Below are positions 5,295 through 62,464 of a stretch of 64,000 bases of DNA, piece by piece. Origin of the DNA: Minisyncoccota bacterium (GTDB taxonomy: Bacteria; Patescibacteriota; Minisyncoccia; Phycocordibacterales; UBA9973); contig DATKGV010000008.1 of NCBI GenBank assembly GCA_035510575.1, positions 4,618 through 68,617 on the forward strand. The letters are read 5' to 3'. A program made the translations under genes and the position numbers. The notes under the pieces are model-generated. The model searched no databases. It worked only from the letters and a program-made list of their open reading frames with translations, and was not told the DNA's origin. How positions within the stretch are numbered: position 1 is the first letter of the stretch; each line of letters starts with the position of its first letter.

Positions 5295-5472
5295 TGAGAA
5301 TATTATATCACATAATAAAAAGCAAAATATCTAAAAAAGAGGCTTGCGAGCGCGTCGGTGAGAATAAAAGCAATATAATTAAAAATGGGCTTATGAGCTC
5401 GACGGAGCGAATAGTGAGCAAATTTTCAGCAGAAAATTTGTGTGCCATTTTTAAGTATATTGCTTTTTGAAT

Positions 5473-14520: not shown

Positions 14521-14754
14521 TTATTCATGTTTTGCCACATTTGATGCGTCAATAGGCATTGCTATATCCAATATCTGGCTTCTGTCCCCTTTTTTATTGG
14601 ACTTATGCGTTTTCTTTTTAAGATTAACGCCTTCAACGACGACTTGGTTGGAAGCAGGAATAGCCCTCAAGATCTTGCCCTTCTTGCCTTTGTTGCTTCC
14701 GGTGATAACTATTACATTGTCTCCTTTTTTGATTTTCATAATTTTTTGTGCCAT
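14521..14754 (-). CDS. rplX: 50S ribosomal protein L24
   Basis: KOW motif 'IKKGDNVIVITGSNKGKKGKI'. Confidence 0.85.
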   Translation of the reverse strand: MAQKIMKIKKGDNVIVITGSNKGKKGKILRAIPASNQVVVEGVNLKKKTHKSNKKGDRSQILDIAMPIDASNVAKHE

Positions 14755-14815
14755 AGGTCAGACCTAGGGACTTTCTTTTTTAAAATTTTGCCCCTAGGTC
14801 TGACCTATGGACCCT

Positions 14816-20163: not shown

Positions 20164-20217
20164 ATATTTGTTCCATAGGTCGGACTTGTGGCTAGCCACA
20201 AGTCCGACCTATGGCCT

Positions 20218-23210: not shown

Positions 23211-23250
23211 CCACTAGCAAGAACCACTAGCAAGAACGGTTCTAGCTAGT
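23211..23250. repeat. REP-like palindromic repeat at the 3' side of the RAYT gene (one full 26-bp unit, 23225-23250, plus an upstream half unit)
   Basis: 'CCACTAGCAAGAAC|CACTAGCAAGAACGGTTCTAGCTAGT'. The unit forms a roughly 12-bp hairpin (ACTAGCAAGAAC / GTTCTAGCTAGT). Confidence 0.7.
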
Positions 23251-23928
23251 GGGTTCTATTATAAAATAATTCTCTATAAAATCTTTAAAAGATTGCTGTG
23301 ATTGGAAATAATCGGGAAATGCTTTTTTATTTAAAATATTACTTTCTATTCTGTCTGTGCCTATATAATCTTGATAACTGGAATATCTGTATGTTTCTAG
23401 AAAATCTTTCATTTCTTTATTATTTTTGTCTTTGTCTTTATCTTGTTTTTCCCAACCTGAAAACTTAATATCAAGTACATTTAGATGAATATATGCAAAA
23501 AGCTGCCGCATATAGTTATCATCTGCTTTTATACATTTTGATTTAAAGAGTCCGCCAAACAAAGCTCCTTGTCTTTGGTATTTTTTGTTAAAAAACATTG
23601 AATATCCTACACCTATCTTCCTCATGAACTTTGTTATTCCTCCATCTACTTCCTGCTTAACTAATATATGAAAATGATTATTCATAAGGCACCATGCGCC
23701 AATAGAAACTAGCGGCTCGCTTTTATTTAAGATCATTATTTCTTCATATCCCTTATGAAGAATATTTATTAAATTATCTAGTTTAATTGCTTCCTTATTA
23801 TTTGCAATATATAAAAGCATTTTAAATCTCTCGAAATCTCTTTCAAGCTTAAAAATGACTCTTTTATCTATACCCCTATTATAGATATGATAATATTCAC
23901 CGGTTATGAATGAATCTTTGCGAAGCAT
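23242..23928 (-). CDS. IS200/IS605-family Y1 (HUH) transposase, REP-associated tyrosine transposase (RAYT)-like
   Basis: 228 aa with 'YYHIYNRGIDKRVIF', HUH motif 'NHFHILV' and the catalytic-Tyr region 'AYIHLNV' (YIHxNP-type). Flanked on both sides by the same palindromic repeat. Confidence 0.65.
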   Translation of the reverse strand: MLRKDSFITGEYYHIYNRGIDKRVIFKLERDFERFKMLLYIANNKEAIKLDNLINILHKGYEEIMILNKSEPLVSIGAWCLMNNHFHILVKQEVDGGITKFMRKIGVGYSMFFNKKYQRQGALFGGLFKSKCIKADDNYMRQLFAYIHLNVLDIKFSGWEKQDKDKDKNNKEMKDFLETYRYSSYQDYIGTDRIESNILNKKAFPDYFQSQQSFKDFIENYFIIEPTS

Positions 23929-23954
23929 GTTTACAGTATAACAAACACCTTAGC

Positions 23955-24116
23955 CACTAGCAAGAACGGTTCTAGCTAGTCCCCAAGGCGGTTTTTATCT
24001 TATACACTAGCAAGAACGGTTCTAGCTAGTCTCGGCAATTCCAGCTACCCACTAGCAAGAACGGTTCTAGCTAGTCCTCACTATATATTACCTATAGCAA
24101 GAAAGGTCTAGCTAGT
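23955..24116. repeat. array of four REP-like 26-bp palindromic units (CACTAGCAAGAACGGTTCTAGCTAGT; the last is degenerate) separated by 19-24 nt unique spacers, at the 5' side of the RAYT gene
   Basis: Exact copies at 23955-23980, 24005-24030 and 24050-24075. Degenerate copy at 24095-24116. Confidence 0.7.
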
Positions 24117-29482: not shown

Positions 29483-29570
29483 ACTGCCATTATTGTACCA
29501 TATATAATAATTTATAAACACAAATCAAAGTTATTTTGCGGTGTGGAAAACTATTTTTCTTTGTATTAAT

Positions 29571-29625
29571 CTCCCCCTGCCAAGGGGGAGATGCCGGAGG
29601 CAGAGGGGGTTGTATTAATTAATTT
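29571..29625. repeat. GC-rich repeat element, partial copy A (first hairpin only)
   Basis: CTCCCCCTGCCAAGGGGGAGATGCCGGAGGCAGAGGGGGTTGTATTAATTAATT in the divergent promoter region between the 27890-29482 gene and nusA. Confidence 0.7.
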
Positions 29626-30962: not shown

Positions 30963-33029
30963 ATGAATCCTTTCATTATTTTTGCTCTTGTTTCCTCAAT
31001 TGTCGCAATATTATACGGCCTGTTTCTGATAAAAATCGTGATGAAAGAAGGCGCGGGCGACAAGAAAATGCAGGATATCGCTTCGGCCATACAGCAAGGC
31101 GCAAAAGCATATTTAAATCGCCAATATAAGACAATCGGTATTATCGCTCTTATTTTATTTTTAATAATCGGCTTTATCCCGATGCTCGGGTGGATGATGG
31201 CTATCGGTTTCTTGACTGGAGCCGTATTATCAGCATTGGCTGGATATATAGGCATGAACGTTTCAGTTCGCGCCAATGTCCGCACGGCCGAAGCCGCAAA
31301 GAAAGGTCTTAAGGAAGCGCTTGGTCTTGCGTTCAAAGGAGGCACAGTTACAGGACTTCTTGTAGTTGGACTCGCCCTTTTAGGTGTAACTTTATTTTAT
31401 ATAATTGCGGAAAAATTTGTCGGTGGCGGAGCTGTCCGCTCTCTTGTCGGATTATCTTTCGGAGCAAGCTTAATTTCTGTCTTTGCTCGTCTTGGCGGCG
31501 GCATATTTACCAAAGCAGCCGACGTCGGCGCCGATTTAGTCGGCAAGGTTGAAGTCGGTATTCCTGAAGATGATCCTCGCAATCCCGCCGTTATTGCCGA
31601 CAATGTCGGAGATAATGTCGGCGATTGCGCAGGCATGGCAGCGGACTTATTTGAGACCTACGCCGTGACATCCGTTGCCACGATGCTGCTCGGGTCGCTC
31701 ATTTTCTCAAACTGGAGCAATGCCGTAATTTTTCCTCTGGCTATCGGAGGCATGGCGATACTCTGTTCCATTATAGGCACATGGTTTGTTCGCTTAGGTA
31801 AACCTGCCCGCCCTCACGATGTTTCGGGAGCAGGCGGGAATAATAATATCATGGGAGCTTTGTATAAGGGCCTCATAGTTTCCGGCATACTATCAGCGAT
31901 TGGATTTTATCCTATAACAAAGTGGCTCATGTCTGGGCAATCAATTTATTCTGTCGGCGCTCTTTACGTTTGCGCATTAGTTGGAATATTTGTCACAGCT
32001 ATGATTATAGTTGTAACTGAATATTATACTTCCACAAAATACAATCCTGTTAAATCAATCGCCTATGCATCGCAATCAGGTCACGGCACAAATGTCATTC
32101 AAGGTTTGGCTATTTCAATGAAATCCACAGCTTTGCCTCTTATCGCCATTGTTGTTGGAATATTAGTTTCATATCATTTCGGCCAACTTTACGGAGTTGC
32201 GGTTGCCGCCATGTCCATGCTTTCTTTAACTGGAATAATAGTTGCAATTGATTCATTCGGTCCTATTACTGACAACGCCGGCGGAATCGCTGAAATGGCA
32301 AACTTGCCGGAAAGCGTCCGTGATGTGACTGATCCGCTTGATGCCGTCGGCAATACCACGAAAGCTGTTACGAAAGGTTACGCTATCGGTTCAGCCGGAC
32401 TTGCCGCTCTTGTTCTCTTCTCTTCATATACTCAAGAATTTTCTGATCTCGGGCATAAATTAAATTTTGATCTTGGTAATCCGCTTGTTATCGTCGGACT
32501 TTTAATCGGCGGACTTCTACCGTTTTATTTCAGCGCATTATGCATGGAAGCAGTCGGTAAAGCCGCCGGAAAAGTCGTTGATGAAGTTCGCCGACAATTC
32601 CGCGAGATTAAAGGAATCATGGACGGTTCTGGAAAACCGGATTATGCCAAATGTGTAGACATCGTTACCACTGGCGCAATCAAGCAAATGATTGTCCCAG
32701 CGCTTATTCCGGTTCTGACTCCGATTTTAGTCGGTTTCATACTTGGACCACAAGCTCTCGGTGGACTCCTCGTTGGATCTATTGTTACAGGAATCTTTCT
32801 TGCAATCTCAATGACATCCGGTGGTGGTGCATGGGATAATGCCAAGAAATATATTGAACTTGGAAATCACGGAGGCAAAGGAAGTGATGCTCACAAAGCA
32901 GCCGTTACAGGCGACACAGTTGGTGATCCTTATAAAGACACCGCTGGTCCTGCAATCAATCCGATGATTAAGATTCTAAACATCATCGCATTGCTATTGG
33001 TTCCAATATTAATAGCAATTTGGTTTTAA
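30963..33029 (+). CDS. hppA: membrane-bound H+/Na+-translocating pyrophosphatase
   Basis: 688 aa with about 16 TM helices. Conserved '[20 protein letters not shown]' and '[19 protein letters not shown]' PPase motifs. Confidence 0.9.
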
Positions 33030-34493: not shown

Positions 34494-35585
34494 ATGAAAA
34501 TAACAATAAAAAAGCTTGAAAAAAGCGAAGTGGAAATATTGGGCGTATTACCTGTGGCAGATTTTGAAAAGTATGAGGAGAAGGCTCTTAATATCATAAG
34601 TGAAAGAGTTGAATTGCCGGGCTTCAGAAAAGGTAAAGCTCCTATCGCAATGATAAAAGAAAATGTAAAAGAAATGGAATTATTGGAAGAAATGGCAGAA
34701 CAGGCGCTTTATGATAATTATCCAAAAATATTACAAGAGAATAAAATAGACGCTATCGGCCGACCACAAATCGCAATTACTAAAATTGCCAAGGGTTCCG
34801 ATTTGGAATTCAAAATATTAACGGCAGTATTGCCGGAGATAAAGCTTCCTGACTATAAAAAAATAGCTAAAGAAAAAAATAGTAGCAATGATTTCAAAAA
34901 AGAAATTGTAGTCGATGAAGCAATGGTTGAGAAAACAATTCTTGATTTACGCAAAATGCGAGCTGAGCAAGCACAACATAAGGATCATGAACATGTACCT
35001 GCCCGCCCTCACGATGTTTCGGGAGCAGGCGGGAAAGGAGAAACTCACGTTGAAATTCCTGAAAGCGAATATCCGGCGTTTGATGATGCTTTCGCCAAAA
35101 CATTCGGCGACTTTGCCAGCGCTGAGGCATTAAAAGAAAAAATTCGCGCCAATCTAAAAATTGAAAAAGAAACCGAGCAGAAAGACAAGCTTCGTCTTGC
35201 TATTGTTGAGGAACTTTTGAAACAATCAGAATGCGAAATTCCAGAAATTCTTATAGACAGCGAAGTTGAAAAGATTTTCTATCGTTTGGAAGCAGATATT
35301 ACAAATATGGGTTTCAAATTTGATGAATATTTAATTCAAATTAAGAAAACTGAAGAAGATTTGCGAAAAGAATGGCGACCTGAAGCAGAAAAGCGCGCCA
35401 AGCTTCAAATGATAATCCAGACAATTTCCGAAAAAGAAAATCTCAAAGCAACTGAAGAAGAAATTGAAAAGGAAGTGAATAACATCGTAACCATCTATAA
35501 GGATGCTGATCCAGCCCGCGCCCGCGCTTATGTGGAACAAATGCTTGAAAATGAAAAGGTCTTTGCATTTCTTGAGAAACAATAA
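34494..35585 (+). CDS. tig: trigger factor (short form)
   Basis: N-terminal ribosome-binding domain '[14 protein letters not shown]' and C-terminal chaperone arm. Immediately upstream of clpP as in many bacteria. Confidence 0.7.
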
Positions 35586-37982: not shown

Positions 37983-38130
37983 CCCTTGCCCGCACACTCA
38001 TTTTGCTGTAGCTTTTTTGTTCTGCCGATAGAAGATTTGCCTATTTGGGTATTTATTGCTTAATATATAAGGTATTATTATTCTTTATATTGAAAAAGCA
38101 GAATAACAGCAAAATGAGTGTGCGGGCTTG
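37983..38130. repeat. 22-bp perfect inverted repeat (GCCCGCACACTCATTTTGCTGT) flanking a 96-nt AT-rich core; MITE-like or large RNA hairpin between rny and hup
   Basis: Left arm 37988-38009 and right arm 38106-38127 are exact reverse complements. Confidence 0.6.
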
Positions 38131-39667: not shown

Positions 39668-40093
39668 TTATAAAATAATATTATCTATTGTTTTCACGCG
39701 GGCTTTTTTTTGTTTGAGATCAAGATACACAAGTAATAGATCAAATTGCCAAGGAGTGTTCCCTATTCTTTTATGAATTAAATATGTTTGAATTGTCCGT
39801 GAAAGCCGTTTCATTTTCCAAGGATGCATATTTTCTTCAGGCCTTGATATGAACGGATTGGTTTCTCGTGTAACATCGCATGCCTGCCCGCCAACATTTA
39901 CTAATGGGCGGGAAACGGACTTAACTTCTATAAAATATATTTTACCCTCTTTCTCCGAAATAATATCAATCTCACCCCATTTTTTAGTATAATTTCTTTC
40001 TAACACAGAAAAACCTTTACTAATAAGATGTTTACAAGCTATATCTTCTCCCAATTGCCCTATTTTTTGAGAATTTGAAGTAAATTTTTTCAT
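39668..40093 (-). CDS. yraN: YraN-family (UPF0102) endonuclease
   Basis: 'GEDIACKHLISKGFSVLERNY...GEIDIISEKEGKIYFIEVKSVSRP' matches the YraN/Holliday-junction-resolvase-like fold. Confidence 0.6.
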   Translation of the reverse strand: MKKFTSNSQKIGQLGEDIACKHLISKGFSVLERNYTKKWGEIDIISEKEGKIYFIEVKSVSRPLVNVGGQACDVTRETNPFISRPEENMHPWKMKRLSRTIQTYLIHKRIGNTPWQFDLLLVYLDLKQKKARVKTIDNIIL

Positions 40094-40396
40094 ATATGTT
40101 TCACATGAAACGTTATATATATATATAAAAGACAATGGATTGTCCTTTATATATAATATCCTTATTATATCAACTTATTTCTGTAAAATAGCAATTTTAA
40201 CTTTCAAAAATCTTTTAATTATTGGTGTCTTTTATAAACAATGCACACATAGTTATCCACATAAATCTTAATTTTAAAGGTTTTTTAATGTGTATAAAGG
40301 ACTAATAAAGGTCAAAAAGAAATTTGTGTGGTCACAAGTATTTTTCTACTAAAAAATCTCGCGACCCCGCCTCGGTTCGTCAACCTCCGGCTTGCA

Positions 40397-40440
40397 CAAA
40401 TTATTAAATTAAATACTTTTAATTTAATAATTTGTGCACC
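40397..40440. repeat. perfect AT-rich 20-bp-stem palindrome GCACAAATTATTAAATTAAA...TTTAATTTAATAATTTGTGC directly 3' of tRNA-Arg
   Basis: Generates the mirrored spurious ORFs 40312-40497(-) and 40328-40510(+). Probable terminator or processing hairpin. Confidence 0.55.
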
Positions 40441-40506
40441 TACCAGGACTCGAACCTGGAACATCTGCTTCGAAGGCAGGTATGATATCCATTTCACTAT
40501 AGGTGC
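40434..40506 (-). tRNA. tRNA-Arg (anticodon UCG), tentative
   Basis: Acceptor GCACCTA/TAGGTGC, T-arm CCAGG-TTCGAGT-CCTGG, anticodon loop CTTCGAA with U33. Confidence 0.5.
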
Positions 40507-40643
40507 ATAAAACTATAAATCATTATACATAAATAATCATTATTTACAAAATATGTTTACAGATTAAGGTTAAAAATAAATTGCATTTAATCATTAAAAA
40601 TATTATAATCCAACTCAGGTTGTAATTTTATTAATAAAAATAT

Positions 40644-40717
40644 GCGGAATTGGTTTAGTGGTAGAACACGTCCTTGCCAAGGATGAGACAGGAGTCCGAT
40701 TCTCCTATTCCGCACCA
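40644..40717 (+). tRNA. tRNA-Gly (anticodon GCC) with encoded CCA
   Basis: Acceptor GCGGAAT/ATTCCGC, anticodon arm CGTCC-TTGCCAA-GGATG, 3' CCA present. Confidence 0.65.
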
Positions 40718-40724
40718 AATTTTT

Positions 40725-42446
40725 ATGGCTGATAAGCCAATCATAAACAATTCAAAAATACCATCTTATGTTACACATGTAACAGAAACACTCAAAAATG
40801 CTGGTTTTGAGAGTTTTCTTGTGGGTGGCTGCGTTCGTGATCTTATACTTAATAAGGAACCAAAGGACTGGGATATTACAACAAATGCTAAACCTGAAGA
40901 AATAATAGCTTTATTTGAGAAAACCGTATATGAAAATACTTTTGGAACAGTGGGGGTGTTTATTCTTGATGTTTCGCATGAAACAAAGGAAGATGTTACA
41001 CGTGTAACTAATAATGATGTTAATCCCGCCGACGGATTACCTGTGGCGGGCAGGCATGAAACAGATAGGGATGTTACACGGGAAACACCTCAATATAATA
41101 TAGTTGAAGTTACACCATATAGGATTGAAGCAAAATATAGCGATTTTAGGCACCCAGATAAAGTTAAATTCAGTGAAAACGTTGAAGATGACTTAAAAAG
41201 ACGTGATTTTACTATAAATGCTATGGCATATGATTCTGATAAAGGACATTTAATGGACTTATTTGATGGGATAAAGGACATAAAGGACAAAGTGATAAGA
41301 GCGGTAGGGAAGCCGAGCGATAGATTTAATGAAGATGCATTGCGAATGCTTCGAGCTATCAGGTTTTCCACACAATTAAATTTTGTAATTGAATATGACA
41401 CGATGCAAGCAATTGTGGATAACTCTCATTTGTTAAAAAATATTTCTGAAGAAAGAATTCGTGATGAATTTATAAAAATTATTGAATCAAAAAATTCTGC
41501 AATGGGAATTGGAATGTTATCAAAATTAGGATTACTAAAATATATTATTCCAGAACTTGAAGAGGGAATTGGCTGTGTTCAAGGAGGAGCTCATACTCTT
41601 GATGTGTTTGAACATTTATTAAAAGCGCTTGAATATGCTTCAGATAAAAATTTCTCAATTGAAATTAGATTGGCTGCATTATTTCATGATATTGGAAAGC
41701 CAAGATCAAGGAGAAATAATGCAGGATTTATAGAACCAGAAACCAATTTATCAGGTCCTCGGATCTCCTCGCTTATAGCTCGGCCAGACCATGCTAAATT
41801 AGTTTCTGGTTCAAAAAATTTAAAGAAAAAATACACATTCTATGGCCATGAAGTTGTTGGTGCAAAAATGACACAAAAAATTTTGGATCGATTAAAATTT
41901 CCAAAAAAGATTTCTGATTTAGTTGTGTCGATGATTCGCAATCACATGTTCTTCTCTGATACAGAACAGATTACACTTTCTGCAGTGCGTCGTATTGTGC
42001 AAAAAGTTGGACCCTCCGACGCTAAAGCTTTGGCGGGCAGGAAAGAAAATTATCCAATTTGGGATTTAATGAAAGTTAGAGAGTGTGATAGAGCTGGAAT
42101 GAAGAAAAGTGAATCACCTTATCGCTTGCGAAAATATTACGCCATGATTGAAGAAGTACTACACGATCCGATTTCTGTCGGCCAACTTGCTATTGATGGG
42201 GAAGTATTAATAGGTGAGTTACACATGAAACCATCGCCTCGTATGGGCTGGATTTTACATGCCTTACTTGAAGAAGTCCTTGATGATCCAACAAAAAATG
42301 ATAAAGGACATCTAATGGACATTGCTAAATCATTAGATTTATTGGGGGATAATGAATTAAAAGCATTAGGTGAAAGAGGGAAGGAAGAAAAAGAAAAGTT
42401 AGAACAAGAAGAAATTAAAAGGTTACATGAGAAACATGGAGTATAA
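40725..42446 (+). CDS. cca: CCA-adding tRNA nucleotidyltransferase (poly(A) polymerase family head with HD domain)
   Basis: Pol-beta nucleotidyltransferase motif 'GGCVRDLILNKEPKDWDITT' and HD motif 'HDIGKP'. The ORF track start inside the tRNA is spurious, so the start is taken at 'MADKPII'. Contains a tandemly duplicated insertion (see findings). Confidence 0.75.
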   Translation: MADKPIINNSKIPSYVTHVTETLKNAGFESFLVGGCVRDLILNKEPKDWDITTNAKPEEIIALFEKTVYENTFGTVGVFILDVSHETKEDVTRVTNNDVNPADGLPVAGRHETDRDVTRETPQYNIVEVTPYRIEAKYSDFRHPDKVKFSENVEDDLKRRDFTINAMAYDSDKGHLMDLFDGIKDIKDKVIRAVGKPSDRFNEDALRMLRAIRFSTQLNFVIEYDTMQAIVDNSHLLKNISEERIRDEFIKIIESKNSAMGIGMLSKLGLLKYIIPELEEGIGCVQGGAHTLDVFEHLLKALEYASDKNFSIEIRLAALFHDIGKPRSRRNNAGFIEPETNLSGPRISSLIARPDHAKLVSGSKNLKKKYTFYGHEVVGAKMTQKILDRLKFPKKISDLVVSMIRNHMFFSDTEQITLSAVRRIVQKVGPSDAKALAGRKENYPIWDLMKVRECDRAGMKKSESPYRLRKYYAMIEEVLHDPISVGQLAIDGEVLIGELHMKPSPRMGWILHALLEEVLDDPTKNDKGHLMDIAKSLDLLGDNELKALGERGKEEKEKLEQEEIKRLHEKHGV

Positions 42447-42450
42447 GAAA

Positions 42451-42477
42451 AATAACCGACATAATCGGTTATTTTTT
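42451..42477. terminator. bidirectional Rho-independent terminator AATAACCGACATAATCGGTTATTTTTT
   Basis: 8-bp stem flanked by A/T runs between convergent cca and the 42476-43420 gene. Confidence 0.55.
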
Positions 42478-43420
42478 ATTTTTCAGGATTATTATAGTCC
42501 CAACCATGATGTTTATAATTTTCTTTTTTATCTTTATTTTTTGGTGTCTTAGGATTATGAAAAATGCCTCTTTCCATTGATTTTGTTATAGGATTATACG
42601 TAAATGACTTTAACCCTTCTATGTTTGGTAAAGATGCTTCTGATGTAGGAGTTATAGTTATTCCCCCATTTTCAACATTTCCTTTTTCTATTACATCTCC
42701 TATTAGTTCACTGTGTTGGTCTAATGGCTTTCCTATTGAAGCTTCTAGTGCGGACTGTTTTGCAAATAAATGCCTACCTTCTGGTTGATCAAGCAATGAA
42801 CGCTTTACCATTCCCTTGTAAGGTTCTCCTTTTTGCCACCATGTGCTATCCTTGCCAGATTTATCATTCTTTCTTATTTTTCCCATATCATTATGAATAA
42901 TCCAATTATCTAAATTATCTTCAGTTTCATTAAATTTATAAAATTGATCATTATTTATTGGCGTACTAGCATCTGAAACATTATATTTTTTTTGATATTT
43001 TAATTTTCTTTTAGAAGGATAAAGTTCATCAGGACGGGGCATAAAATCATAAGTGCTGTCTACAAGATCAAAACCCCCTTTAAATTTTCTAATATGATAC
43101 ATTCGGCCATCTTTTTGTAGATATTGTGAACCATAAACGTCAATTATCTTGGCTCCTTCAGGTAAAGAAGGAGTAAATCCTGAATAAGATTCATTAGGTG
43201 CAATTAGTTCTTCTTCTAATATACGATTAGCAGATAGATTATCTGCTAAAGTTTTATCCATTTTACTATTATCTAGTAATTTAGATAATAGTGTGGCTTT
43301 AAAATTAGGTGTATTTTTTATTAGTGTTCTAATTTTAGCCAAATTTGAAACTTTAGATTCCTTATCTAAAATAGATTCTTTTTTGGGGTCTTCCTTTTTT
43401 ATTAGATTAAAATTTTCCAT
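42476..43420 (-). CDS. Lys-rich hypothetical protein
   Basis: 314 aa. No recognisable motif. Confidence 0.4.
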   Translation of the reverse strand: MENFNLIKKEDPKKESILDKESKVSNLAKIRTLIKNTPNFKATLLSKLLDNSKMDKTLADNLSANRILEEELIAPNESYSGFTPSLPEGAKIIDVYGSQYLQKDGRMYHIRKFKGGFDLVDSTYDFMPRPDELYPSKRKLKYQKKYNVSDASTPINNDQFYKFNETEDNLDNWIIHNDMGKIRKNDKSGKDSTWWQKGEPYKGMVKRSLLDQPEGRHLFAKQSALEASIGKPLDQHSELIGDVIEKGNVENGGITITPTSEASLPNIEGLKSFTYNPITKSMERGIFHNPKTPKNKDKKENYKHHGWDYNNPEK

Positions 43421-43443
43421 AGATTAATTTTACTACAAAAAAA

Positions 43444-44211
43444 CTAAAACTCAATCATTATTGGACAGTGATCGGAACCATAGTAATCAGATAGAGTTTT
43501 AAAATCTTTTATTTTTTTCATGAAATTTTTATCTACAAAAAAGTAATCTATGCGCCAGCCGACATTTCGGTCGCGTGCGCGAGTTATCTGATCCCAATAA
43601 GTATAAACATCTTTTTTATTTGGGTTAAGAGTACGGAAAGTATCCACAAATCCATTGTCTATAACTTTATCTATCCATTCTCGTTCCATCGGTAAGAACC
43701 CAGTTGAATCCTCATTATCTTTTGGACGAGCAAGATCAATAGCGGTGTGTGCTGTATTTACATCTCCAGTGAAAATCACATTATATCCGGCCTTCTTTTT
43801 CCTATTTATAAATTTTAAAAATGCATCATAAAACTCCATTTTATATTTTAATCGTACAGGTCCACCACCACCATTAGGGAAGTAGCAATTGATTAAAATA
43901 AAATTTTTATAATAAGAAATAACCGTGCGACCTTCATCATCAAATTCTTCTATGCCAATTCCATATTCAACTTTCTCTGGTTTTACTTTTGAATAGATAG
44001 CTACTCCACTGTAACCTTTTCTTTTTTTAGAAAATGAGAAATAAGAATTGTAACCAAAATAATTTCGGATTTCATTTGGCAATTGCTCTGGCTCACATTT
44101 TGTTTCTTGAAAGCAAACAATATCGGGTTTGTATTTCGAAAATAGGGGATAAAAATGGCCTTGATTGGCTGTAGCTCTTAACCCATTTGTGTTCCATGAA
44201 ATTATTTTCAT
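43444..44211 (-). CDS. xth: exodeoxyribonuclease III (EEP family AP endonuclease)
   Basis: Starts 'MKIISWNTNGLR' with 'FQETK' and a C-terminal 'GSDHCP' catalytic His. The ORF track N-terminal extension to 44277 is translation of a GC-rich repeat element. Confidence 0.8.
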   Translation of the reverse strand: MKIISWNTNGLRATANQGHFYPLFSKYKPDIVCFQETKCEPEQLPNEIRNYFGYNSYFSFSKKRKGYSGVAIYSKVKPEKVEYGIGIEEFDDEGRTVISYYKNFILINCYFPNGGGGPVRLKYKMEFYDAFLKFINRKKKAGYNVIFTGDVNTAHTAIDLARPKDNEDSTGFLPMEREWIDKVIDNGFVDTFRTLNPNKKDVYTYWDQITRARDRNVGWRIDYFFVDKNFMKKIKDFKTLSDYYGSDHCPIMIEF

Positions 44212-44230
44212 GATAGAAGTATAGCATTTG

Positions 44231-44324
44231 CCTCGCCCCCTGCTAAGGGGGAGATGCCGGAGGCAGAGGGGGTGCATTAATTAATTCACCCCTCCTCAAT
44301 CCTCCCCTTGTTAAGGGGAGGAGG
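44231..44324. repeat. GC-rich two-hairpin dispersed repeat element, copy B
   Basis: CCTCGCCCCCTGCTAAGGGGGAGATGCCGGAGGCAGAGGGGGTGCATTAATTAATTCACCCCTCCTCAATCCTCCCCTTGTTAAGGGGAGGAGG. Near-identical to 61463-61549. Confidence 0.8.
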
Positions 44325-44334
44325 AACTCAAAAA

Positions 44335-45384
44335 CTATTTACTGTGAAATTTCTTATGAACATCGCGAAGCTGTTTGTCTGTTATATGAGTATATATCTG
44401 AGTCGTGGCAATATTCGCATGGCCTAACATCATTTGAACTGAACGAATATCTGCTCCATTTGAAAGCAAGTCAGTGGCAAATGAGTGGCGAATAATGTGA
44501 GGAGTAACTTTCTTTGAAATTCCGGCCTTTATCGCATAAAACTTTACGATACGCTCTATAGAACGAGGTGCGAGCCTGTTTCCCACCGAAGCAAGGCTTA
44601 GGTTTTTACCTAAGCCTTGCTTCGGTGAATTATGCGAATACTGAACAAAAAGTGGCTGATCCATATCTTTTCTAGATTTTAAGTAATTACGAATGGCATC
44701 TTTGGCACTATCAGACAGGAATACAACGCGAACTTTCTCTCCTTTACCGCGAATAGAAAATTCATCTTTTGATAAATCAATATCTCGATCAAGAGAACAT
44801 AATTCAGACAGACGCAATCCAGTTGAGAAAAATAATTCAAGAATGGCTTTATCACGCAGAATTCTTATTGTTTTGCTGGCAATGGAATTTTGAAGTCCTC
44901 GGATCTCCTCGCTATTACTTTCTTTGTTTTTTGAAATAGCTCGGCCAGACTTCAAAATTCCATTGCCAGCTTCACTCATATTGGGAGCATTAAGAAGTCT
45001 TGTTAATTCTTCAGCAGAGATTAAATCAAGCGAGCGCTCTTTTATCTTTGCCAGTTCTATCCTATCCGGCGAGAGGGAAGTTATGCCGCGCTTCATCAGA
45101 TATTTAAGAAACGAACGAAGCGCAATAAGATGATAATTTTGAGTGTTTTTCTTCAAAGTGCCGGCATGTTGCCCGCGAATTTTAACTCCGGGTTGGCGAT
45201 TCAAATATAATCTAAACTCCCGTATTTTGTCGTCAGTTATTCCATTTGGTTCGGAAATCTTGGCAAAGGCAAAAAATCTGGAAAGATAATAGTCATAATT
45301 ATTTACTGTCTTTAAGCTGTTGCCTTTCTCGATTTCCACATGTTCGAGAAATTCTCTTTTTAATTGTTCAATACGTGCTGCCAT
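44335..45384 (-). CDS. tyrosine site-specific recombinase XerC/XerD-like (with two in-frame palindromic insertions)
   Basis: C-terminal catalytic region 'HIIRHSFATDLLSNGADIRSVQMMLGHANIATTQIYTH'. The start is taken at the internal 'MAARIEQLKREF', typical of Xer N-termini. Confidence 0.7.
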   Translation of the reverse strand: MAARIEQLKREFLEHVEIEKGNSLKTVNNYDYYLSRFFAFAKISEPNGITDDKIREFRLYLNRQPGVKIRGQHAGTLKKNTQNYHLIALRSFLKYLMKRGITSLSPDRIELAKIKERSLDLISAEELTRLLNAPNMSEAGNGILKSGRAISKNKESNSEEIRGLQNSIASKTIRILRDKAILELFFSTGLRLSELCSLDRDIDLSKDEFSIRGKGEKVRVVFLSDSAKDAIRNYLKSRKDMDQPLFVQYSHNSPKQGLGKNLSLASVGNRLAPRSIERIVKFYAIKAGISKKVTPHIIRHSFATDLLSNGADIRSVQMMLGHANIATTQIYTHITDKQLRDVHKKFHSK

Positions 45385-61462: not shown

Positions 61463-61549
61463 CCTCGCCCCCTGCTAAGGGGGAGATGCCGGAGGCAGAG
61501 GGGGTGCATTAATTCACCCCTCCTCAATCCTCCCCTTGGCAGGGGAGGA
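61463..61549. repeat. GC-rich two-hairpin dispersed repeat element, copy C
   Basis: Greater than 90% identical to copy B. Located in the uvrD-rsmA spacer. Confidence 0.8.
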
Positions 61550-61585
61550 AAAACTCAATTTTTGAATAAATGCTAATATACAAAT

Positions 61586-62464
61586 ATGATTTATCATGCG
61601 AAAAAATCTCTCAGCCAAAATTTTCTAAAATCAAAACCGGCGCTTGAAATGATGATCAAAGCGGGCGAGGTTGATGACAATGATATTATTTTGGAAATCG
61701 GTCCCGGCAAAGGCGCCTTAACAAGCAAGCTTCTGGAAAAAGCGAAAAAAGTAATCGCCGTTGAGAAAGATAGCAGCTTGATCAGAATGCTTGAAGAAAA
61801 ATTCAAGAATGAAATAAAAAATAAAAAACTTATTTTAATAAATGAGGATATCTTAAAGTTTAAATTCCCCCTCCCCTTTACAAGGGGAGGGCTGGGGAGG
61901 GGTGAATTGATAGACCCCCTCTGCCCTTCGGGCATCTCCCCCTTATCAAGGGGGAGAGGGATTAATGAGTACAAAATAATAGCCAATATTCCTTACAATA
62001 TTACCGGCGCAATCATAAAAAAATTTCTCTCCGGAGAAAATCAGCCGTCGGTTATGATCCTGCTTGTGCAAAAAGAAGTGGCAGACAGAATTACTGCTAG
62101 AAGTAACAAAGAAAGCATTTTATCGCTCAGCGTCAAAGCTTATGGAACGCCGAAATATGTGATGAAAGTTGGAAAAAGATTCTTCTCGCCCAGCCCTAAA
62201 GTGGATTCAGCCATTATATCGATAAAAGATATCTCCAGAAAAAATTTCAAGACGCCGAGTGAAGAAGAGCAATTCTTCAAAATAATCAAGAGCGCTTTCG
62301 CGCACAAGCGAAAAGTTCTCCGCAAGAACTTGGAAGAGGTGGCATCGCTTGAAACTATTGATTTTATGTTTGCAAAATTAGGAATAAATCAAAAAATCAG
62401 AGCTGAAGATGTGCCATTTACGCAGTGGCTCTCGATAAGCAGATATTTATCAGAAAATGCCTAG
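61586..62464 (+). CDS. rsmA: 16S rRNA (adenine1518/1519-N6)-dimethyltransferase RsmA/KsgA, carrying an in-frame ~108-bp repeat-element insertion
   Basis: 'GQNFLKSKPALEMMIKAG...EIGPGKGALT' SAM-binding region and C-terminal RsmA domain. The segment 'LPFTRGGLGRGELIDPLCPSGISPLSRGRGINE' is encoded by an inverted copy of the GC-rich element seen at 44231 and 61463. Confidence 0.75.
   Translation: MIYHAKKSLSQNFLKSKPALEMMIKAGEVDDNDIILEIGPGKGALTSKLLEKAKKVIAVEKDSSLIRMLEEKFKNEIKNKKLILINEDILKFKFPLPFTRGGLGRGELIDPLCPSGISPLSRGRGINEYKIIANIPYNITGAIIKKFLSGENQPSVMILLVQKEVADRITARSNKESILSLSVKAYGTPKYVMKVGKRFFSPSPKVDSAIISIKDISRKNFKTPSEEEQFFKIIKSAFAHKRKVLRKNLEEVASLETIDFMFAKLGINQKIRAEDVPFTQWLSISRYLSENA
61865..61972. 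repeat. GC-rich repeat element, inverted copy D inserted in-frame inside rsmA
   Basis: The reverse complement aligns to copies B and C along its whole length with a few substitutions and a 4-nt indel. Confidence 0.75.

Follow-up and report, generated by a model that had tools for sequence, protein, structure and literature searches.

The means by which protein-coding palindromic repeats spread, those known as Rickettsia palindromic elements (RPEs) among them, have been in question since 2000. We consider here a 64,000-nt stretch of DNA from a Minisyncoccota bacterium (contig DATKGV010000008.1 of assembly GCA_035510575.1; hereafter the window), in which a xerC/xerD-like tyrosine recombinase gene (xerC) and the gene for a CCA-adding enzyme (cca) carry hairpin-forming segments in frame, and a family of palindromic elements, dispersed through the Patescibacteria (Candidate Phyla Radiation, CPR), to which one segment in each gene belongs. 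RPEs are 100–150-bp repeats found in both intergenic and protein-coding regions, including PheT (PMC1779305, which cites Claverie and Ogata 2003). For repetitive extragenic palindromes (REPs) and the doublets known as REPINs, mobilisation in trans by a TnpA/RAYT-type (Y1/HUH) enzyme reading single-stranded hairpins has been proposed (PMC3116915 and PMC6006769). Our reading, held with moderate confidence, is that the xerC segment designated element 2 and its relative in cca are copies of a selfish palindromic DNA repeat of RPE/REPIN type, kept at the DNA level.

The two host genes, as given by the ORF list, are xerC at 44335-45384 (minus strand), which holds both element 2 and a second structure, hairpin 1, and cca at ~40728-42446 (plus strand). 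The window XerC protein is 100% identical to a protein from a Candidatus Paceibacterota metagenome-assembled genome (MAG), has Pfam domains PF02899 and PF00589, and aligns with solved XerA and XerD structures; orthologues of the cca product have PF01743, PF12627, PF01966, and PF13735. An independent metagenome contig from the same organism (L151) is 100% identical to the window over 2.8 kb. Both ORFs run open straight across the palindromic segments, and the first-pass annotation was correct in reading the two in xerC as translated in frame.

Element 2 is a complete 96-nt hairpin element (44875-44970, plus strand; 32 codons), read on the minus strand as AGNGILKSGRAISKNKESNSEEIRGLQNSIAS and delimited by inverted repeats, its fold, a covariance model, and orthologues with an empty site. 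Its perfect arms (44875-44897 and 44948-44970) are 23 nt each including GTC/GAC. The outer 20 nt on the 5′ side (44875-44894) are locus-specific, not found in other family members, and perfectly complementary to the equally locus-specific 3′ outer arm recovered by inverted-repeat analysis (44951-44970). Between these lies an asymmetric centre (44895-44950), conserved by family comparison and covariance model, which consists of GTCCTCGGATCTCCTCGC, an apical stem-loop GCTATT..AATAGC (~44911-44940), and GCTCGGCCAGAC. The first-pass annotation had recognised an inverted-repeat element here, and was right to, but gave it 84 bp and 17-bp arms at 44881-44964. The fold has z = -8.7 to -9.5 against shuffles. 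Only one of the six reading frames is open across the element, and it is xerC's own.

The two closest orthologues with DNA at hand (P0003/L045 and P0006/L047) are without element 2, the difference being an exact 96-nt block; cutting out 44875-44970 brings the codon count back to theirs. The first pass had proposed looking for such empty orthologues and for target-site duplications at the element boundaries. The former exist, here and at the cca site; the latter do not: the filled/empty comparison with P0003 and P0006 has no duplicated flank, and across 60 non-redundant elements arm-to-flank similarity was nowhere above controls. One hint of flank duplication in the xerC alignment, a AACAATAA match, is one base out of register. 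A model in which the outer arms copy the neighbouring target, inverted or direct (X-centre-X′-X*), was rejected as a general rule, arm-flank similarity being equal to controls in the same 60 elements. The whole hairpin, arms included, is the unit that is seen duplicated and seen as a clean insertion, without target-site duplication.

XerC orthologues are 74–85% identical overall and ~78–92% over aligned columns, and range from 303 to 354 amino acids. This length variation is confined to two positions, site 1 after LLNAP and site 2 after QYSxN, where different orthologues hold differing translated palindromes (SPKQGLG..LSLAS, PRSDLGAKSK..LGLTYG, QRSNLGSTRGSTSNT). These sites were placed by sequence alignment to XerA and XerD, the AlphaFold model (mean pLDDT 50) being left aside: site 2, where hairpin 1 lies, falls in an alignment gap against XerA structure 4a8e, and site 1 is at the beginning of the stretch aligned to the catalytic domain. 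A core-family element is present at site 1 in only 2 of 35 aligned orthologues. An insert of the element 2 type occurs in the window protein and in P0002, the nearest orthologue with a filled site, and not in P0003 or P0006; as judged from protein alone, the arms of the two covary (NGIL/QNSI against SKIF/ENFT). At site 2, P0006 (L047) has another small palindrome, CCTGCCTGC/GCAGGCAGG, encoding RPACAG, and no other inserts, which shows that different hairpins turn over fast at one site among orthologues 81–92% identical to the window protein. Palindromes based on CCATAGGTC(A/G)GAC.. also occur elsewhere in the window (14748-14813 and 20173-20214), overlapping gene starts at ribosomal-protein operon junctions; in translation this sequence yields PRSDLG and LGLTYG, peptides that many orthologues carry as inserts at XerC sites 1 and 2.

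The relative of element 2 in cca (41726-41819, plus strand; identified by inverted repeats, fold, and covariance model) is read as FIEPETNLSGPRISSLIARPDHAKLVSGSKN. Its 28-nt arms (41726-41753 and 41792-41819) are 86% complementary and unrelated in sequence to those in xerC. A shared-sequence search places its conserved centre, in a short-apex form GTCCTCGGATCTCCTCGCTTATAGCTCGGCCAGAC, at 41755-41789 on the plus strand. Two boxes are common to the two copies and found nowhere else in the window: CCTCGGATCTCCTCGCT at 41757-41773 and 44897-44913 (0.04 matches expected with up to three mismatches), and ATAGCTCGGCCAGAC at 41775-41789 and 44936-44950 (0.7 expected on the same terms). Since the centre is on the plus strand in both genes, it runs with the gene in cca and against it in xerC, and the earlier observation that the core recurs in cca on the opposite strand relative to the gene holds. 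A covariance model built from 17 other copies finds only these two in the 64 kb, at 72.6 bits (cca) and 58.1 bits (xerC); the next match, at 21.6 bits, is a generic hairpin. With Rfam 15, a gathering-threshold scan of the window returned tRNAs only, and a permissive scan of 41600-45100 only chance-level matches to generic hairpins. All three structures, including hairpin 1, fold better than each of 200 shuffles on both strands (six folds, z -3.5 to -10.9).

The cca site offers a sample of orthologues drawn independently of the centre sequence used as a search pattern, and so free of that ascertainment bias. Of 120 orthologues, 85 have no insert between HDIGKPRSRR and KKxYTFYGHE; 35 have one of at least five residues at the element site, ~25 of them of element type. 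The window-type centre is present in three of the 120 (the window protein, P0140, and P0206), and ~17 have homologous arms (..ETNLS|GPR ... PDH|AK..) around differing interiors (GPRTRGTGAVPDH or GPRMREDEGPD, for example); five lie flipped, and in two a single arm is left. In the DNA of three such orthologues the junction boxes GGTCCTCGGA and GCCAGACC are kept and the interior differs. This patchy presence means turnover rather than universal retention, and the persistence of the boxes while interiors are replaced or diverge marks the junctions as the most constrained part. The HD loop that is filled in the window is filled also in L012, a Saccharibacteria genome of 28% GC, where the copy has unrelated arms and uses a different frame.

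The cca gene has further peculiarities. Two more GC-rich palindromes lie in frame, at 41024-41050 (CCCGCCGACGG-ATTA-CCTGTGGCGGG, encoding PADGLPVAG) and 42011-42040 (CCCTCCGACGCTAAAGCTTTGGCGGGCAGG, encoding PSDAKALAG); these peptides recur at several differing positions of cca orthologues, so that they make up another hairpin family. Six parS-like 16-mers (TGTTNCAYRTGNAACA, with two or three mismatches to TGTTTCACGTGAAACA) lie at 39860, 40097, 40769, 40970, 40994, and 41072, within 1.2 kb (39860-41087), where 0.24 would be expected in the whole window. Four of the six are in frame in the 5′ part of cca (peptides SHET, VTRVT, and VTRET), and orthologues are hypervariable along this stretch, with repeated VTHET/VTRET motifs. 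They may represent a centromere-like parS cluster within a coding sequence.

Beyond the window, when one genome for each GTDB species was scanned for an exact 18-mer, 44 loci were found, of which 31 have the full architecture. These are from Saccharibacteria, Paceibacteria/Paceibacterota, Adlerbacteria, Nomurabacteria, Vogelbacteria, and unclassified Patescibacteria MAGs, with one (L022) from a MAG labelled Bacteroidetes; the remaining matches, from other phyla and mostly of high GC (0.48–0.76), are without the second half and are chance. A two-box pattern scan of JGI metagenomes gave at least 119 loci, and the two sets combined at least 141 non-redundant copies. Family counts given below are among the matches listed, and because copies were found through an exact 22-nt pattern, the conservation estimates drawn from them are inflated by ascertainment. 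No matches were found among IMG/VR viral contigs, which were searched for carriage by phage.

Family elements are 70–125 nt long. They run from an outer arm, which can reach 30 bp or more, through an A-rich inner arm and GTCC TCGGATCT CCTCGC to an apex, and from there through GCTCGG or GCGAGG, CCAGAC(C) (usually followed by a bulged A), and a T-rich inner arm to the other outer arm. The apex is 7–10, 17–23, or 27–31 nt long, the longer ones forming a covarying stem of their own. Arms vary by locus; the asymmetric centre is common to the copies, its most conserved part being the junction boxes (G)GTCCTCGGA and GCCAGAC(C) and its apex variable. Positions outside the search pattern are conserved too: GTCC precedes it in 135 of the 141 copies, and the apex is followed by GCTCGG in 111 and GCGAGG in 19.

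As the first pass surmised from the two loci in the window, the element tolerates residence in coding sequence. Some 60% of copies (85 of 141) are in ORFs of at least 120 amino acids, the other 56 being intergenic or in short ORFs. Besides XerC and CCA, the hosts identified by Pfam are LigA, PolA, DnaE, UvrC, RecJ, RecG, IleRS, LeuRS, ArgRS, PheT, TruB, TrmD, MnmA, TsaD, Tgt, and a SpoU methylase. The LigA zinc-finger loop (13 copies), a PolA linker (6), IleRS (5), and TruB (4) are each occupied at the same site in diverged lineages, as is UvrC, with 8 copies at two sites. All 85 ORF-assigned copies are free of stop codons in the host frame, and in those host families that were looked at, homologous protein flanks the copy on either side. 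Neither of the conserved boxes contains a stop codon in any frame, and all six frames are in use, sense copies giving peptides such as GPRISS.., VLGSPR.., and SSDLLA.. and antisense copies SEEIRG.., RGDPRT.., and ARRSED..; the peptides predicted from the inserts include GPRISSL, SSDLLA, SEEIRGL, and KQGLGKNLSLAS. Copies occur in either orientation relative to transcription, sense to antisense being 67:18 among coding copies, a count that includes orthologous, and hence non-independent, copies. A link between orientation and replication direction was considered and rejected: GC skew of the core strand is positive at 52 of 75 loci, but at only 3 of the 10 with antisense copies. As the antisense copies are mostly on the C-rich strand, the bias follows gene direction.

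One subfamily of 27 copies is mostly intergenic and has conserved 21-nt arms, ACAAATTATATTCTGAAAAAA and ATTTTTTCATAAAATAATTTGT, in many contexts, usually 12–25 nt from a start codon. Its members (loci L057-L167, e.g., L094 2351-2392, L118, and L061) are upstream of start codons on either side, rplL for example, and arm plus flank reads like TTCATA-17 nt-TAAAAT. From its sequence and position, it may be a portable promoter or leader.

Divergence at old sites was measured in eleven LigA orthologues as mean pairwise difference per site. The flanking third codon positions differ by 0.53 and codon positions 1+2 by 0.14; the outer arms of the element differ by 0.43–0.47 and its 15–16-nt inner arms by 0.15–0.17. 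For all this near-neutral divergence of the outer arms, no more than 6% of their positions are unpaired, and 313 pairwise differences are mirrored on both arms, vs. 109 that are not. When the alignment was made without fitting to the structure, 16 of the 17 arm pairs that vary do so on both sides; none of 500 shuffles matches this, and sliding the partner by one column abolishes the signal. Mismatches in ~1250 arm positions comprise 9 G·T, 18 A·C, and 65 others, with no enrichment of G·T; several of the C·T and A·A mismatches recur as marks of subfamilies. The centre, like the inner arms, stays at 0.15–0.17 per site whatever the orientation or reading frame. Oppositely oriented copies at the same LigA, PolA, TruB, and MnmA sites are exact reverse complements of the whole element, asymmetric inner arms included, so that the DNA is kept though the encoded peptide changes. 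Together, the mirrored arms, the lack of G·T excess, the frame-independent conservation, and the flips argue for constraint and pairing at the DNA level and for inversion in place, not for mRNA structure. A helix at the RNA level was rejected as a candidate, there being no G·U enrichment and no Rfam match. Comparison by hand with the hammerhead, HDV L3, the tRNA D-arm, the 16S 3′ end, and the K-turn showed only partial and unconvincing resemblances.

Loci L106 and L159 each have two copies ~290 nt apart within one uvrC gene. The two share arms and apex type, and the orthologous copies of the two loci have differing apex types, a pattern that suggests duplication of whole hairpins, or conversion between copies within a genome. 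The arm is part of the mobile unit, at least sometimes, as the arms shared by the 27-copy subfamily across many contexts also show.

Hairpin 1, the other structure in xerC, is a perfect palindrome (44584-44627) with 20-nt, 100% complementary arms (44584-44603 and 44608-44627) and a 4-nt loop, found by inverted-repeat and fold analysis and read as SPKQGLGKNLSLASV. It is real, as first reported, though its stem had been given as 17 bp, its loop as 7 nt, and its end as 44637. Folded as single-stranded DNA it has z = -10.8 against shuffles. At site 2 many orthologues have QYSKNSPKQGLGKGNRLTPR, i.e., one SPKQGLGKG unit; in the DNA of one of these (P0004/L168) the site reads AATTCACCAAAGCAAGGCCTCGGTAAG|GGT, and in the window GGTAAA is followed by 21 additional nucleotides and then GGA. 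By codon, P0004 has AAT TCA CCA AAG CAA GGC CTC GGT AAG | GGT AAT, and the window AAT TCA CCG AAG CAA GGC TTA GGT AAA [AAC CTA AGC CTT GCT TCG GTG] GGA AAC. The extra segment (44584-44604, minus strand; in gene sense AACCTAAGCCTTGCTTCGGTG) is an exact inverted copy of the unit at 44608-44627, the 21 added bases being the exact reverse complement of the 20 before them.

With a 7-bp stem around an AAG loop, the unit, CCTAAGCAAGGCTTAGG, is a mini-palindrome in its own right. P0004 has it singly at sites 1 and 2, P0005 has a spaced doublet of it at site 1, and an unrelated locus, L052, has a doublet with 21-bp arms; the window supplies the third doublet. The single-unit orthologue and the further doublet at L052 support reading hairpin 1 as a doublet of a recurrent unit. 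Both palindromic segments flagged in xerC are extra relative to orthologues, but where element 2 is an inserted element, hairpin 1 is a 21-nt inverted duplication, most simply of pre-existing local sequence and with no transposon imported. It probably arose by the same kind of templating as the arms of element 2: a 17–20-nt mini-palindromic unit CC(G/T)AAGCAAGGCTTAGG, in itself a recurrent CPR repeat, would have been copied inverted, adding 21 nt, or 7 codons. The doublet could conceivably be ancestral instead, with one arm lost in other lineages, and one-arm remnants of the other, element 2 family do exist at the cca site; this is less parsimonious.

If element 2 and its relatives are selfish DNA, as we favour, both features of xerC would be products of palindrome dynamics operating at the DNA level across patescibacterial genes, with palindromes surviving only where the protein tolerates added loop residues. 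Each copy has three layers: a near-invariant asymmetric centre (~35 nt), subfamily-specific inner arms, and locus-specific, near-perfectly paired outer arms. Arm pairing could be kept up by templated copying from arm to arm, through intrastrand template switching or hairpin-directed repair, rather than by selection on an RNA fold. Intrastrand template switching is established from quasipalindrome correction. The junction boxes might be the recognition site of a trans-acting DNA enzyme, the candidates being an HUH/Y1-type enzyme or another structure-specific nuclease or recombinase active on extruded single-stranded hairpins, which would copy or convert the centre between sites.

Several observations sit badly with this scheme. 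No transposase-like gene or other mobilising protein was found among the 20 window ORFs scanned with Pfam. Copy number is low, at 2 per 64 kb with ~8 extra in 1.1 Mb of flanking DNA, quite unlike a bursting miniature inverted-repeat transposable element (MITE). The 67:18 sense bias is not predicted by a pure DNA-level model, and maintenance of the arms by template switching is something we infer rather than observe. Finally, centre and inner arms at old sites are as conserved as codon positions 1+2, where selfish copies should decay. This conservation at the old LigA sites suggests either selection at the host level or continuing conversion, though part of it may be ascertainment; at the cca site, with its unbiased sampling, interiors do differ and termini persist.

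Those last points lead to the alternative that fares best, in which the centre is a structured nucleic-acid motif with a function for the host, as a single-stranded DNA hairpin or cruciform or as a bulged, kink-like RNA, bound by a CPR-wide protein. Purifying selection would retain it in and between essential genes, and the long arms would merely present it. We regard this as possible, if rather unlikely. Slow change of the centre and inner arms, while third positions have diverged by 53% and outer arms by 45%, would be as expected, as would conservation at the nucleotide level independent of frame and orientation. The same can be said of the filling of the same sites in diverged lineages (LigA 13, UvrC 8, PolA 6, IleRS 5, TruB 4, and the cca site in both Saccharibacteria and Paceibacteria), the covariation in arms and apical stem, the small number of copies per genome, the sense-strand bias, and the subfamily positioned 12–25 nt from start codons. 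A functional motif should not, however, be as patchy as this one (2 of 35 XerC orthologues, ~25 of 120 for cca), stand in both orientations relative to transcription, or have its interior replaced, as at the cca site; the lack of G·U enrichment speaks against an RNA helix, there is no Rfam match, and the conservation is inflated by the exact-pattern search.

A bolder version, which we offer as speculation and think doubtful, is that the ~35-nt asymmetric centre, whose bulged junction reads GGTC-CUC-GG / CC-A-GACC, is a functional nucleic-acid motif of ancient date, common to all Patescibacteria, carried on hairpins in essential genes for replication, repair, and tRNA enzymes and read by a conserved protein, with arms kept paired by templating dedicated to that end and an orientation that can be switched by inversion between the arms. 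If true, this would be a new class of intragenic cis-element, or a self-maintaining DNA structure, rather than decaying junk.

To return to a selfish repeat, the family can be set beside the systems that most resemble it. Cyanobacterial small dispersed repeats (SDRs), reportedly described by Elhai and co-workers in 2008, are 21–27 nt long, mostly intergenic, and confined to Nostocales. They are also tiny conserved mobile sequences within copy-specific flanks that can form a hairpin, with no target duplications and no known enzyme; SDRs are not known to reside in frame in essential genes, or to have arms that covary at orthologous sites. RPEs, and the protein-coding palindromic repeats of Wolbachia, are like the present family in being dispersed palindromes, intergenic as well as in frame in housekeeping ORFs including PheT; RPEs are kept at orthologous sites across a clade, have no known transposase, and inhabit the small genomes of host-dependent bacteria (PMC1779305). 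They differ in being conserved along their length, whereas here only the ~35-nt centre and short inner arms are conserved and the outer arms are locus-specific and covarying; in being limited to one order, where this family spans a phylum (Saccharibacteria to Paceibacteria); and in that CPR family copies are flipped at orthologous sites. The likeness to RPE-1 through RPE-8 is by description and in the way of working only: they are from a different phylum, homology is not expected, and we do not class the family with them.

The resemblance to REPs and REPINs (PMC3116915 and PMC6006769) lies in the proposed mobilisation in trans and, for the hairpin 1 family only, in short imperfect palindromes occurring as singlets and inverted doublets, much as hairpin 1 relates to a single SPKQGLG unit. 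REPs are extragenic, high-copy, and species-specific, with conserved stems; the palindromes here lie within genes at low copy number, and those of the core family have a conserved centre and variable stems. The extragenic location and high copy number of REP/REPIN-RAYT systems are likewise not seen in the hairpin 1 copies, which are intragenic, at one locus in the window and one (L052) in the 1.1 Mb of fetched DNA; no genome-wide RAYT search was made. An asymmetric conserved centre, locus-specific arms that covary, flips in place, and phylum-wide spread are new features among protein-coding palindromic repeats. No account of such elements in CPR/Patescibacteria was found in the full-text literature searched, which is incomplete and otherwise yielded RPE and REPIN papers only, so that an earlier description is possible.

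The first-pass annotation had suggested a MITE with terminal inverted repeats, that is, an element cut and pasted by a transposase encoded elsewhere, its length a multiple of three by chance. Like classical MITEs (e.g., Correia and Nezha; reviewed in PMC10969869), these elements are small, non-autonomous, non-coding, palindromic, multi-copy, polymorphic for insertion, and sometimes in frame in genes, and the arms of one subfamily are conserved. MITEs, however, are defined by conserved terminal repeats matching those of a parent insertion sequence (IS) and by target-site duplications. Here it is the centre that is conserved across the family and not the termini: the 23-nt xerC arm has no match elsewhere in the window or in the other 171 fetched loci except L151, from the same organism, and at orthologous sites outer arms covary rather than stay fixed. 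Neither the filled/empty sites nor the 60 elements examined for arm-flank likeness have target-site duplications, and the 20 window ORFs scanned with Pfam include no related IS or transposase. The suggestion therefore looks improbable.

It is more improbable still that the segments are removed before or during translation, by intron-like RNA excision or by programmed ribosomal bypass. The hairpins would be very stable within mRNAs, and there is a precedent in the GC-rich clusters or ‘byp’ hairpins of yeast mitochondria, which are mobile and settle in coding sequence wherever it is permissive; Lang and co-workers reportedly found in 2014 that such insertions are bypassed. Byps break the frame and are skipped by the ribosome, whereas the CPR family keeps the frame open, in all 85 ORF-assigned copies and with homologous protein on both sides in the families examined, which implies translation. 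There are no take-off and landing codon pairs, and no stop codon after a take-off site. That element 2 is open only in the frame used argues likewise for translation and a selective filter, a filter that would be needless for a segment that is taken out.

The view that the palindromes arose by chance in ordinary protein sequence, or through an error of assembly, has nothing in its favour beyond the low complexity of AT-rich DNA, and is hardly credible given chance expectations of 0.04 matches or fewer, folds that no shuffle equals (z -3.5 to -10.9), identical DNA in contig L151 and identical protein in an NCBI MAG, the at least 141 non-redundant family copies, and orthologues without the segments, so that the absence of further copies by which the first pass would have known a chance palindrome is not borne out.

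Other repeats and oddities were noticed in the window and the fetched loci. An identical 39-nt element, ACCTGCCCGCCCTCACGATGTTTCGGGAGCAGGCGGGAA, is in frame at 31802-31840 and 34997-35035 in two unrelated genes, for H+-pyrophosphatase and trigger factor, and both copies are translated as the same 12-letter peptide. A composite GC-rich repeat of ~100 nt with short hairpins (CCCCCTGCTAAGGGGG and CCTCCCCTTGTTAAGGGGAGG) is found at 29568-29619, 44231-44332, 61463-61558, and 61859-61953; one copy fills the spacer between an exonuclease III-like gene and the xerC stop, and another, inverted, is in frame within rsmA/ksgA as FKFPLPFTRGGLGRGELIDPLCPSGISPLSRG. A 26-nt palindrome, CACTAGCAAGAACGGTTCTAGCTAGT, has four copies in 23221-24080, three of them within 130 nt (23951-24080). 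Intergenic long-arm hairpins at 5366-5467 and 37985-38130 (23-nt and 25-nt arms; unrelated centres of 56 and 96 nt) have the same look of variable arm plus centre, with a different centre. Two synthetases among the fetched loci carry whole extra domains: a CPR IleRS-like class-I aminoacyl-tRNA synthetase with a histidine-phosphatase domain (L009, 5376-8000), and a CPR LeuRS with a NUDIX domain (L075, 4341-7172).

For the question of how RPE-type repeats spread, the family provides a sharp handle: a near-invariant, recognition-like centre, clean filled and empty sites without target duplication, arm covariation that can be measured at near-neutral rates, flips in place, and a distribution over an uncultivated phylum. 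With these features, phylogenetic profiling can be used straight away to look for the trans-acting enzyme. For the Patescibacteria themselves, the inserts account for much of the puzzling variation in length among housekeeping proteins, and gene callers, alignments, and structure predictions can be led astray by them; with them also come perfect hairpins of 20–40 bp, at which assemblies may break.

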